This document shows positions 8,780 through 12,519 of a stretch of 64,000 bases of DNA, one piece after another (the stretch's first letter is position 1; the number at the start of each line of letters is the position of its first letter). Under the pieces are notes generated by a model that saw only the letters and a list, made by a program, of their open reading frames with translations, was not told the origin of the DNA and searched no databases. The stretch covers positions 4,064,001 through 4,128,000 of the forward strand of contig OY762911.1 of NCBI GenBank assembly GCA_963666565.1, written 5' to 3'. Source of the stretch: Thermoanaerobaculia bacterium. GTDB lineage: Bacteria > Acidobacteriota > Thermoanaerobaculia > Multivoradales > Multivoraceae. Both the position numbers and the translations under genes were made by a program.

Positions 8780-9772
8780 ATGATCGGACGGACCACGCTC
8801 GCTCTCACCGTGGCGGCCGCGCTGCTCGCGGCGCCCGCACTGGCAGCCGACGACTGGGAGACGCCGCGCACTCCCTGGGGCCACCCGGACCTGCAGGGCC
8901 TGTGGACGAACACGACCCTGACCCCCTTCGAGCGGCCGGTCGAGATGGGCGACAAGGCGTTCCTGACCGAGGAGGAGGTCGCTCAGGCCGAGGCGGCCCG
9001 CCAGGCGATGATCCAGAACCGGGCGGACCAGCCCGCGCAGAAGGCGGAGGCCGGCCAGAACGTCGGCGCCTACAACCTGCACTGGCTGGAACTCGGCACG
9101 AAGATCGTCGGCAGCAGGCGGACCTCCCTGGTCGTCGATCCGCCGAGCGGCCGCGTGCCGGTGCGGCCCGAGGCGCAGCAGGTGCGGGCCGACAACCTGG
9201 TCAAGATGTTCGACTCGTACGAACACATGAGCGTCTGGGACCGCTGCATCACCCGCGGCGTCCCCGGGCACCTCTTCCCGGCCGGCTACAACAACAACTA
9301 CCGGATCGCCCAGACGCCCGAGTACGTCGTCATCTACTCCGAGATGATCAACGACGTCCGCTTCATCCCGGTCGACGGCCGCGAGCGGATCCCCGAGGAC
9401 CTCCACCTCTGGAACGGCGACTCCCGCGGCCACTGGGACGGCGACACGCTCGTCGTCGAGACGAGGAACTTCTCCGACAAGGGCTGGATCGCCACCAGCG
9501 GCTCCCAGGGCCGGATCAAGGGGATCCCGGTCAGCACCGAGCTCGTCACGGTGGAGCGCTTCGCGCGCGTCGACGAGCACACCGTGGACTGGACGGTCAC
9601 GATCGAGGATCCGGTCAACTACACGGACGCCTGGACGGTGAACATCCCGCTCTACTTCGACCCGGACAACGAGATGTTCGAGTACGCCTGCCACGAAGGC
9701 AACTGGGCGGTCTACAACACGTTGAGCGGCGCCCGCCACCTGGAGAAGACGGGCGAGGACAGCAGCCCGTAG
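8780..9772 (+). CDS. secreted 'PDLxGxW...EYACHEGN' family protein (paralog 3)
   Basis: Signal peptide, TPWGHPDLQGLWT, DRCITRG, YNNNY, GDSRGHWDGDT, FEYACHEGN; GGAGGAG SD. Confidence 0.87.
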   Translation: MIGRTTLALTVAAALLAAPALAADDWETPRTPWGHPDLQGLWTNTTLTPFERPVEMGDKAFLTEEEVAQAEAARQAMIQNRADQPAQKAEAGQNVGAYNLHWLELGTKIVGSRRTSLVVDPPSGRVPVRPEAQQVRADNLVKMFDSYEHMSVWDRCITRGVPGHLFPAGYNNNYRIAQTPEYVVIYSEMINDVRFIPVDGRERIPEDLHLWNGDSRGHWDGDTLVVETRNFSDKGWIATSGSQGRIKGIPVSTELVTVERFARVDEHTVDWTVTIEDPVNYTDAWTVNIPLYFDPDNEMFEYACHEGNWAVYNTLSGARHLEKTGEDSSP

Positions 9773-9863
9773 ACGCGTCCGTCCGCGAGAGCGCCGCCAG
9801 TCCGCGCCCCGCGAGGAACCAGGCGACGCGACCGCGATCTCACGCAGCGCGAGGAACCACAAG

Positions 9864-10937
9864 ATGAGCTTCCCGATGAGTTTCGACCCTGGCCGCTTCC
9901 CCGTTCCCGTCCGCGACGACATGGCCGCGGCGCTCCGCGAATCCTGGGCCGACGTCGGCCGGCCCGGCGCCTGGTGGACCGGTCCCGAGCGAGTCGCCAT
10001 CGCGGGACTCGCCCGCGCCGAGCGCCTCCAGCGGAACCAGCCGCCGTGGACCCGCGACCGTTCGCGGGCGCCGGCGGCGCCCCTGCCCGAAAAGGCCGTC
10101 GAAGCGGCCCGGAAGATCGGCGCCGACCCGATGCACCTTGACCGCGAGTGGGCCGACGCCGTCATCGCCGAAATCGGCGACGCGCCCTACGTCGAACTCG
10201 CCTCGGTCGTCGTGACGACGGTCGCCGCCGACGCCTTCTGCGAGGCGATGGGGATCGACCCCGAGCCCCTGCCGGCGCCCGAAGCCGGCGAGCCGACCCG
10301 CGAGCGGCCCGACAACCTGAGCGACATCGGGGCCTGGGTGCCGGTCCAGGTCATCGACTGGAAGCGCGCAAACGTGGCGCGCGCGCTCAGCCTGGCGCCA
10401 GAGGGCGTCCGCACGTTCTTCCGCATGGTCGCCGCCATGTACTCGGGCACGGCCACCGACTTCGAGAAGATGGTGTGGGACCACCGGCCGCTCCCGCGGC
10501 CCCAGGTCGAGCTGATCGCGGCCAGGGTCTCGGCCCTCAACGAGTGCTTCTACTGAACCACCGCCCACACCATGCTGCTCCGGGCGAGCAGCAACGCAGC
10601 CGGAACGGAAGTGGACCTGAGCGCGACGGTGGAGGACACTGCTGACAGCGGGGTCGAGAACGGCGCGGCTCTGACGGCCTTCGCGGAAGCGGTCGTCCGG
10701 GCAACGGACGATCTGGATGCGGTCCGCGCGCGGGCGCTCGAGACGCTGGGGCCGGAGAAGTTCGTCGAGGCCGCCGCCACCGTCGGCATCTTCAACGGCC
10801 TGGTCCGCGTCGCCGACTCCACCGGCATCCCCAGCGACACGATGATGCTCGAAGGCACCGCCGACGTCCGCGGCGACCTCGGCATCAACCGCTGGGCCGG
10901 CGCCAAGGCCTCCGGCGTCGCCGAGGCGCGCGCGTAG
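9864..10937 (+). CDS. AhpD/CMD-like alkylhydroperoxidase-related selenoprotein (UGA at 10554-10556 read as Sec), about 357 aa
   Basis: ORFs 9864-10556 and 10572-10937 are in the same frame. The junction reads ELIAARVSALNEC-F-Y-TGA-TTAH, matching AhpD ExxxxxxSxxNxCxxCxxxH; SECIS-like hairpin downstream. Confidence 0.85.
10573..10593 (+). promoter_or_regulatory. candidate bacterial SECIS element
   Basis: TGCTGCTC-CGGGC-GAGCAGCA: perfect 8-bp stem with a G-rich loop, starting 16 nt after the in-frame UGA. Confidence 0.75.
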
Positions 10938-10970
10938 CGTCGGGGACGCAGCACCCGCCGGTTCGCGGCT

Positions 10971-11378
10971 CTACCGGGCGGCTTCGGCGAGCCAGTTCTC
11001 CACGCGCAGACCGTCCACGCGGCCAAACTCCCTCTCGTTGTTCGTCACCAGCGTGGCGTGAGCGCCTCGGGCGTGGGCCGCAATCAGAAGGTCGTTCGCT
11101 CCTATCGTCTGGCCGCGCCGCACAAGCTCCTGGCGGATCTTGCCGTAGCGAACGCCAGCCTCGGCATCGAACGGCAGGATGTCGAGATCGAGACAGAAGG
11201 CCTGAAGCTCCCGCTCATTCTCTTCAACCCGAGCCGAGTGCGCGACGCCGAAGCACAGTTCCGCGTGCGTGATGGCGGAGATGCACACGCTGGAGGCGTT
11301 CTCCTCGAACTTCCGCCTCAGACCCTGATCGCGCTCGTTGATCAGGTAGATGCACATGTCCGTGTCCAGCATGAACAT
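10971..11378 (-). CDS. vapC: VapC PIN-domain toxin
   Basis: MFMLDTDMCIY...SAITHAEL...IGANDLLIAAHA...LVTNNEREF.RVDGL.VENW. Confidence 0.93.
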   Translation of the reverse strand: MFMLDTDMCIYLINERDQGLRRKFEENASSVCISAITHAELCFGVAHSARVEENERELQAFCLDLDILPFDAEAGVRYGKIRQELVRRGQTIGANDLLIAAHARGAHATLVTNNEREFGRVDGLRVENWLAEAAR

Positions 11379-11626
11379 CAGCGGAGATCGTCCCGCTCCT
11401 CAAGAGGCGGCTGGTTGCGCGCGGGAAGGCTCCCTCGGGACCTCGCATCGAAGTACGCGCCCCAGTTCTTCCCGCGCGGAAGCAACGTAAGCCGATCCCC
11501 TTCCTGGATCACCTCCACCTCGGAGGTCGCGAACCGGCACGCCGCCGGCAGCCGTACCGCCTGACTGCGTCCGCTCCAGAACACCTTGGCGACCCCTCTG
11601 TAGTCCGGCTCCTTGTTCATTGGCAC
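11378..11626 (-). CDS. vapB: VapB (AbrB/MazE-fold) antitoxin
   Basis: AKVFWSGRSQAVRLP...EVEVIQEGDRLTLLP; TGATG-coupled to vapC. Confidence 0.92.
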   Translation of the reverse strand: MPMNKEPDYRGVAKVFWSGRSQAVRLPAACRFATSEVEVIQEGDRLTLLPRGKNWGAYFDARSRGSLPARNQPPLEERDDLR

Positions 11627-11677: not shown

Positions 11678-11952
11678 CCGTCCGGCTGGCTCGCGGCGCG
11701 GAGAAGCCTCCGACGTCAAGGGGTGCCGGCGCAAAGCTCACCGAAGCGACAACTCCAGGGCTGCTCCCCTGCCCATGACCGCAAACAACCGGAGAACGCC
11801 GGTACCGGCCGACGCCTGGTCGACGGGGGCCAGGAGTTCGAATCCCGTCCGGTCCATGCCGGTGCCGACACGACGCTCCGAGTTGCCGGGGCCATCCCCG
11901 TTCGCGCTCGTGGCTGCCAGAAAAGCGCCGTCGCGATAGAGGACGATCTGGC

Positions 11953-12336
11953 GCGCCGGCGGCGCCCCTGCCCGAAAAGGCCGTCGAAGCGGCCCGGAAG
12001 ATCGGCGCCGACCCGATGCACCTTGACCGCGAGTGGGCCGACGCCGTCATCGCCGAAATCGGCGACGCGCCCTACGTCGAACTCGCCTCGGTCGTCGTGA
12101 CGACGGTCGCCGCCGACGCCTTCTGCGAGGCGATGGGGATCGACCCCGAGCCCCTGCCGGCGCCCGAAGCCGGCGAGCCGACCCGCGAGCGGCCCGACAA
12201 CCTGGGCGAAATCGGGGCCTGGGTGCCGGTCCAGGTCATCGATTGGAAGCGCGCAAACGTGGCGCGCGCGCTCAGCCTGGCGCCGGAGGGCGTCCGCACG
12301 TTCTTCCGCATGGTCGCCGCCATGTACTCGGGCACG
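11953..12336 (+). pseudogene. 384-bp direct duplicate of an internal part (10068-10451) of the selenoprotein gene
   Basis: Near-identical sequence with about 4 substitutions (e.g. LSDI to LGEI); lacks the start and the Sec-containing end. Confidence 0.9.
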
Positions 12337-12519
12337 CCCCTCTCCCGGACCGCTCGGGCTGGTCGTCGCAGGTGGCTGGCGCCGGACGGTTGGCGAGGCT
12401 GCGTGGGCGGAGGGGATCTGGAGGCCGGGGGCGGGTCGGGGGATGGCGACCGGGCAGATCCGGGCTCAGGGGGGTCGGCGACGCCGGGCGGGTGAAGGTG
12501 ACCCTGAGTTTGGCGCGGG

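Follow-up and report, generated by a model that had tools for sequence, protein, structure and literature searches.

We analysed a 64,000-nucleotide stretch of the genome of a Thermoanaerobaculia bacterium (contig OY762911.1, positions 4,064,001 to 4,128,000 of the forward strand), referred to below as the window. Positions 9864–10937 of the window are best read as a single gene, in which an in-frame UGA specifies selenocysteine (Sec). Its product would belong to the NCBIfam family NF041238 and act in the cytoplasm as a two-lobed, AhpD-related thiol/selenol oxidoreductase. We put the probability of this reading at about 93%. By computation, the locus is one gene with a conserved TGA, a Sec/Cys pair among homologues, coding constraint after the TGA and a hairpin that fits the bacterial selenocysteine insertion sequence (SECIS) model. 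The genome has the Sec machinery, and the product has an AhpD fold.

The gene was originally predicted from two open reading frames (ORFs) in the same frame that are parted only by TGA ACC ACC GCC CAC ACC. The sequence, the ORFs and their translation confirmed this arrangement (Table 1). Translation with TGA as U gave a product of 357 aa, ...ELIAARVSALNECFY-U231-TTAHTMLLRASS..., with the TGA as residue 231 in the context ...SALNE-C228-F-Y-U231-T-T-A-H235.... As proposed, the stop sits at the second Cys of the AhpD CxxC motif and the His follows it. The Shine-Dalgarno-like GAGGA ahead of the first ATG may be the ribosome-binding site. The gene might instead start at the ATG at 9876 (M5), which is the first codon of some orthologues. 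Reading by eye found no purine-rich or Shine-Dalgarno-like run ahead of the internal ATG at 10572. The Met encoded there is replaced by Leu, Gln, Asn or His in distant members, so a separate downstream gene would have no conserved start.

The Pfam domain CMD (PF02627) spans the TGA. In the Pfam scan, the read-through product scored 34 bits over residues 202–272 (cut-off 23), the 5′ ORF alone scored 19.7 bits, under the cut-off, and the 3′ ORF alone gave no CMD match. Variable sites per codon position were counted in 34 distinct orthologues, i.e. the window gene and loci L054–L087. The counts were 20/10/35 for the 45 codons upstream of the TGA and 17/13/38 for the 45 downstream codons. The stretch 3′ of the TGA evolves as in-frame coding sequence.

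The read-through product matched NF041238, an equivalog model named 'AhpD_rel_CFYUT', with 336.7 bits (cut-off 175) over model positions 1–355 of 357, consistent with the predicted single selenoenzyme of 357 aa. When the genome was searched with the same model, the locus scored 327.9 bits, with one TGA inside the match.

The TGA was conserved in relatives. Sixty related genomes were searched, 36 from the same genus and 24 from other families of the order. The gene was present in 33 of the 36 genus members and in none of the 24 other genomes. Exactly one TGA was found in all 40 match rows that reached the Sec site; the two match rows without a stop spanned just model positions 1–203 and 63–205. 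In an even draw of 401 genomes from the phylum, 14 matched NF041238, 12 of them over the cut-off. The matches included all nine genus members and two genomes of another family (~427 bits), with one TGA each. In a species-representative genome collection, C-x-x-TGA-x3-H was present at the family position in 47 of 48 loci, and a Cys codon at the Sec position was found in none of the 48. The record titles of these loci named 'Candidatus Multivorans', Thermoanaerobaculia, Holophagales, Vicinamibacterales, Myxococcota, Dehalococcoidia and 'delta proteobacterium'. The motif-less exception, L088, lies on the same record as L098. It is probably the split copy that was found in genome G035 of the relatives set.

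A HMMER search of 1.84 billion cluster representatives returned 1458 matches at E ≤ 0.001. Among the best 150 of these, 70 stop exactly after the C-x-x tripeptide (CFY in 60 of them), and 42 are at least 300 aa long. The column of U231 in these 42 long sequences holds Cys in 35, Gly in three, Ser in two and Leu in one, with one sequence ending earlier; the column of C228 holds Cys in 40. Judged from these alignments, the Sec/Cys pairing at U231 is what classically marks selenoprotein families. The TGA and Cys counts also agree with the expectation that homologues would carry C or U at this position, with conserved flanks. In a protein search, the best 120 of 271 matches (E ≤ 1e-5) all covered 55–64% of the query, indicating that the stored proteins end at the TGA. 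NCBI labels the relatives 'alkylhydroperoxidase-related (seleno)protein', and their stored products are 223–230 aa long. Protein databases thus carry the TGA-ended form, and standard annotation does split the gene as foreseen.

The perfect hairpin predicted 16 nt after the UGA was recovered at 10573–10593. It consists of TGCTGCTC (10573–10580), the loop CGGGC (10581–10585) and GAGCAGCA (10586–10593), and the distance from the UGA to the start of the loop is 24 nt. In the published model of the bacterial SECIS, the loop has 3–9 nt, the upper stem has 4–16 bp, and one or both of the first two loop bases are G, as a rule with G or U next (PMC13188914). The model places the loop 16–37 nt from the UGA and allows a minimum free energy of at most −7.5 kcal/mol (Fig. 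2 legend of PMC13188914). The loop in the window has 5 nt, with G at position 2 and G as the next base. On all four constraints the hairpin lies within the published limits, in agreement with its original description as SECIS-like.

The hairpin was also present in relatives, with loops of CGGGC, CGUGC, CGUGU or CGUGA. In 18 sequences, picked for distinctness out of ~50 available, standard pairs occupied 86.8% of the pair cells, versus 21–59% when the 3′ partners were slid. The inner five pairs were kept in 16–18 of the 18 sequences. As a chance control, the TGA triplets of the window were inspected on either strand, 1232 in all, and 12 of them precede a perfect model-fitting stem of at least 8 bp. 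A hairpin of such quality and placement is uncommon but not decisive by itself. Only the TGA at 10554–10556 is flanked by long open frames that encode a sensible protein. The other 11 have no sensible flanking frames, and other hidden selenoprotein genes in the window were rejected. The case beats chance because of the conservation, not because of the hairpin by itself.

The host is known solely through metagenome-assembled genomes; the assembly with the window is one contig of 4.79 Mb and is 97% complete. It contains selA (430.7 bits), selB (349.7 bits), selD (219.7 bits) and a tRNA-Sec (74.1 bits), which ARAGORN called as tRNA-SeC with the anticodon TCA. The whole set of selA, selB, selC and selD expected in the original prediction is in the genome. 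The selD match makes up the C-terminal part of a fusion protein of 839 aa. The N-terminal half of this protein looks, by eye, like a pyridine-nucleotide-disulfide oxidoreductase or NADH dehydrogenase. If this half is read correctly, the protein would be of the Ndh-SelD fusion type, which is described in the Global Ocean Sampling (GOS) paper (PMC2398784). selA was detected in 5 of 5 genus members tested, three of which are without the selenoprotein gene, and the co-occurrence test was non-discriminating. Elsewhere TGA serves as an ordinary stop, e.g. for vapB (11378–11626, minus strand).

The 3D structure was modeled using AlphaFold2 with a 63-sequence alignment. The model was all-helical, with a predicted local distance difference test (pLDDT) score of 93.0 and a predicted template modelling (pTM) score of 0.92. 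Its best whole-chain match by VIA-align was human Sestrin2 (5cuf_A; Z 16.9, root-mean-square deviation (rmsd) 3.4, 242 aligned residues, model residues 1–322, 12% identity). Foldseek gave no match in the PDB at E ≤ 0.001; its best row, the AhpD-core protein 2prr_C, had E 2.4e-3 and covered the C-lobe only. The whole-chain likeness was visible by VIA-align and missed by Foldseek.

Residues 1–155 modeled alone also had a pLDDT of 93.0. The top eight VIA-align matches of this N-lobe were all AhpD/CMD-fold chains (2pfx_B: Z 9.1, rmsd 3.0, 118 aligned), and the first unrelated row had Z 4.1. Because Z values under ~13 in helical proteins may mean a common arrangement only, we regard the N-lobe as a probable degenerate AhpD-like domain. 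For the C-lobe, 2pfx_B ('peroxidase-related') had Z 12.4 over model residues 154–334. The debrominase Bmp8 (6ohi_A, Z 12.9) and the CMD-family protein 3lvy_A (Z 11.7) were closer than M. tuberculosis AhpD (1gu9_A, Z 8.2). In a PDB profile search, D. radiodurans AhpD (6k40_A) matched profile positions 163–313 at E 1.1e-21, and 1gu9_A was a weak match (E 0.0011).

The redox site lies in the C-lobe. E216, C228, Y230, U231 (aligned as C), T232 and H235 were invariant in 14 of 14 aligned family sequences, and so were all columns of the motif C-F-Y-U-T (C228-F-Y-U231-T232). The relay residues described for M. tuberculosis AhpD are E118/C130/H132/C133/H137, and those for P. aeruginosa PA0269 are E36/C48/Y50/C51/H55 (PMC3141380). 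M. tuberculosis AhpD (PDB 1gu9/1knc) and PA0269 (2o4d) have the same relay spacing as E216/C228/Y230/U231/H235. The difference is that their second residue of the pair is Cys, whereas the window protein has Sec there.

These features suggest how the protein would be made and how it might work. The UGA at 10554–10556 would be decoded as Sec during translation, as in established bacterial Sec biology. The hairpin would recruit SelB carrying Sec-tRNA(Sec), and the Ndh-SelD fusion protein would supply the selenophosphate with which SelA makes Sec-tRNA. In M. tuberculosis AhpD, the second residue of CxxC is the attacking nucleophile. By analogy, U231 would make the attack and C228 would act as the resolving residue, with the pair alternating between selenol/thiol and selenenylsulfide. 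By homology, the protein would reduce either a peroxide or an oxidised partner, the latter being a peroxiredoxin-type protein or some other disulfide. Sec insertion, the redox cycle and the substrate are what we infer from the computed features.

A fusion protein in relatives bears on the partner. In three relatives of the same genus, distinct from the window's genome, there is a frame of ~640 codons with two in-frame TGAs. Pfam and NCBIfam assigned to it an AhpC/TSA-type domain with W-U-P-P-C, a DsbD_N domain and NF041238 positions 111–357 with C-F-Y-U. The first TGA has a 6-bp hairpin downstream with the loop GGUCG. The frame looks like a gene for a tri-domain Prx-like/DsbD_N/AhpD-related protein with two selenocysteines. 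Such a fusion is not listed in the consulted passages of PMC13188914. The window's genome has a second selenoprotein gene, L102, whose protein shares 40% identity with the N-part of the fusion. The joining of NF041238 to Prx-like Sec and DsbD_N domains in the three relatives points to a thiol-disulfide relay with a peroxiredoxin-type partner, a role that we somewhat favor for the window protein.

Several observations weigh against the proposed selenoprotein and its role. Covariation in the hairpin was thin, with changes on both sides in just 2 of 8 pairs. Among orthologues, synonymous variation was seen in 3 of 7 degenerate codons inside the hairpin and in 69 of 78 outside it, and the Fisher p value of 0.009 for this difference is overstated, since the compared sequences are related. 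The hairpin also encodes the conserved peptide LLRASS, and the constraints on RNA and protein are confounded. The 67 nt after the UGA were not unusually stable compared with shuffled sequences (z = −0.10). The Rfam search of 9500–11200 gave no relevant match at E ≤ 10, a null result that is expected if Rfam holds no model for the SECIS of the NF041238 gene. Within ~3 kb of the selenoprotein gene there is no AhpC/TSA gene, and its actual neighbors are an epimerase-like gene, the gene of a 330-aa exported protein and VapBC. The L102 protein, the genome's own Prx-like/DsbD_N selenoprotein, has a signal-peptide-like N-terminus and the window selenoprotein has no export signal; the L102 protein is probably located in another compartment and was set aside as the partner. 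The passages of the cited papers that deal with these proteins report no experimental demonstration of selenium in the window protein or in any NF041238 member.

Other explanations keep the selenocysteine and change the function. The protein could be a real selenoprotein that acts as a peroxidase in its own right, as a general (seleno)thiol-disulfide oxidoreductase or as some other reductive enzyme, for example one like the CMD-fold debrominase Bmp8, rather than as an AhpD that recycles AhpC. The lack of an adjacent ahpC-type gene and the closer structural match to Bmp8, 2pfx_B and 3lvy_A than to 1gu9_A agree with such a role, as does the score of 39.8 bits for TIGR01926, under its cut-off of 81.8. 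Against it stand the invariance of the full AhpD relay, E-x11-C-x-Y-U-x3-H, and the fusion with a Prx-like selenoprotein domain and DsbD_N in three relatives. We consider a role outside AhpC recycling possible but rather unlikely.

Explanations without selenocysteine fare much worse. If the UGA were a true stop, the product would be a truncated 230-aa protein, with a separate 121-aa downstream product or none. Gene callers give exactly such products, as the coverage of 55–64% in the best 120 of 271 matches illustrates, and an ATG is present at 10572. The 5′ piece, however, would end within the CxxC motif and the CMD domain. The 3′ piece evolves as in-frame coding sequence, has no Shine-Dalgarno-like run and has no conserved start codon in distant members, and 35 of the 42 full-length homologues have Cys instead of the stop. 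These points make a true stop very improbable. A pseudogene formed by a recent TGC/TGT-to-TGA nonsense mutation would agree with a rearranged locus, since a truncated duplicate lies nearby. Yet 47 of 48 loci, from several phyla, have the same TGA, as do 33 of 36 genus members, and the variation after it is mostly at third positions, implying purifying selection; we give the pseudogene almost no weight. An altered code, with UGA read as Trp, Gly or Cys, would leave the frame open, and it has nothing further in its favor. TGA is the ordinary stop of nearby vapB, the other TGAs of the window lie outside sensible open frames, and the genome has a dedicated tRNA-Sec plus selA and selB. This reading, too, has a negligible chance of being right. 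Decoding of the UGA as Sec within one gene remains the reading that we adopt.

The gene lies in an order that is conserved in the genus: PQQ-dehydrogenase (minus strand), epimerase-like gene (plus), 330-aa exported protein (plus), selenoprotein (plus) and 990-aa protein (minus). The 330-aa protein matched no Pfam or NCBIfam family. Its gene was linked to the selenoprotein gene in 35 of 35 genus-clade loci and adjacent to it in 33. It was linked in none of 13 distant loci, and the protein was rejected as a family-wide partner. VapBC also follows the selenoprotein gene in two relatives (L055 and L068), which do not have the duplicate fragment described below. At locus L089, from a Myxococcota record, a small AhpD-like gene at ~2554 encodes C-R-F-C-x3-H, with TGC as the second Cys codon, just upstream of an NF041238 gene.

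Downstream of VapBC, part of the selenoprotein gene is duplicated (Table 1). The duplicate matched NF041238 positions 63–205 only, with 102 bits. The start, the Sec codon and the C-lobe are all missing from it, and it is a non-functional remnant apart from the working gene. The duplicated stretch is 83–86% identical to the genes of relatives and 98.7% identical to the window's own gene, indicating that the duplication was recent and occurred within the window's genome. Its flanks (11687–11950 and 12340–12519) had no match in six relatives (L054, L055, L056, L058, L068 and L086).

Table 1. Features of the selenoprotein locus, with related loci elsewhere in the genome and in relatives. Positions refer to the window unless stated otherwise.
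Feature	Position	Strand	Basis or details
Selenoprotein gene, complete	9864–10937	+	357 codons + TAG stop (10935–10937)
5′ ORF	9864–10556	+	ATG start, 230 aa, ends at TGA 10554–10556
UGA, predicted to be read as selenocysteine (U231)	10554–10556	+	TGA conserved, Cys in homologues
In-frame linker ACC ACC GCC CAC ACC	10557–10571	+	directly after the TGA
3′ ORF	10572–10937	+	ATG 10572 to TAG 10935–10937, 121-aa product
Bacterial SECIS-type hairpin	10573–10593	+	8-bp stem, loop CGGGC, −12.5 kcal/mol
Shine-Dalgarno-like GAGGA	9851–9855	+	8 nt upstream of ATG 9864, read from the sequence
N-terminal lobe	9864–10265	+	residues ~1–134, probable degenerate AhpD/CMD-like helical domain, no redox Cys pair in the window clade
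C-terminal catalytic AhpD-like lobe (predicted)	10327–10898	+	residues ~155–345, Pfam CMD and structure matches
Redox site E216-x11-C228-F-Y230-U231-T-T-A-H235	10509–10568	+	alignment
330-aa protein	8780–9772	+	signal-peptide-like start, 91 nt upstream of the selenoprotein gene
VapC (PIN) / VapB (MazE-type) pair	10971–11626	−	between the gene and the duplicate
Internal 387-bp gene duplicate	11953–12339	+	matches 10068–10454 (residues ~69–197), 98.7% identity, 5 mismatches
selD-containing fusion	genome C1:4552649–4555168, loci L010/L011	+	C-G-G-C at the SelD N-terminus
Second selenoprotein gene, Prx-like/DsbD_N-like	genome C1:1133702–1134757, locus L102	+	W-U-P-Y-C, one in-frame TGA
Fusion frame with two TGAs	L053 1474–3393	−	also L098–L100

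The family has two subtypes. A CxxC pair in the N-lobe was found in 26 of 56 family sequences sampled. The window clade has a 7-residue gap at this site and no cysteine pair, and it scores ~335 bits with NF041238, versus ~427 bits for the second clade. One speculative scenario joins these observations. NF041238 might comprise bacterial two-lobed Sestrin-like AhpD enzymes, descended from an ancestor in which the N-lobe CxxC and the C-lobe CxxU formed an internal electron relay. The window clade would have lost the N-lobe pair, and the form that follows the Prx-like Sec and DsbD_N domains in the fusion of the three relatives would be a sister form. The family would serve a peroxiredoxin-type system as its selenium-dependent recycling module, and the window version would use a changed electron path or partner. 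We think this scenario, taken as a whole, rather unlikely. If it were true, the tri-domain fusion with two selenocysteines would be an undescribed selenoprotein architecture.

The window gene is an ordinary, already known member of a family catalogued since 2005, for which a curated NCBI model exists, and as a discovery it matters little. Its practical value lies in annotation correction. The gene and nearly all its relatives are stored as fragments of ~225 aa that end at the Sec codon, and without read-through of the UGA, selenoproteome counts for the 'Candidatus Multivorans' group come out too low. Biochemical work on NF041238 could start from its two-lobed fold, its two subtypes and the fusion found in relatives.

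The window protein shares with NF041238 proteins the C-F-Y-U-T motif, the CxxU redox pair and the SECIS hairpin after the UGA. The original prediction allowed that the family might not be new, and this was right. A table row of a 2026 review equates NF041238 with 'hypothetical protein 1' of the Sargasso Sea selenoproteome (PMC13188914). The 2005 paper describes 'hypothetical protein 1' as four sequences with a conserved CXXU, and its description gives no functional evidence (Zhang, Fomenko and Gladyshev 2005, PMC1088965). The same paper reports 27 sequences of AhpD-like CxxU selenoproteins from the Sargasso Sea (PMC1088965), and the GOS study of 2008 counted 299 sequences of AhpD-like 1 and 70 of AhpD-like 2 (PMC2398784). 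'AhpD-like 1' (COG2128/TIGR01926) and 'AhpD-like 2' (PF02627) have the same fold as the window protein and the same replacement of the second Cys by Sec. A difference is that solved single-lobe relatives of these two types are ~145–200 aa long, whereas the window protein adds a degenerate second lobe.

The two-lobed layout resembles that of Sestrin2, which is twofold pseudo-symmetric (PMC4674687). A Pfam scan of the window protein at E ≤ 0.1 gave CMD only, with no match to the Sestrin family. We take the redox cysteine of Sestrin2 to be in its N-terminal lobe, whereas the active pair of the window protein is in the C-terminal lobe. The likeness is one of layout, not of family membership: each protein consists of two AhpD-like lobes in a single chain.

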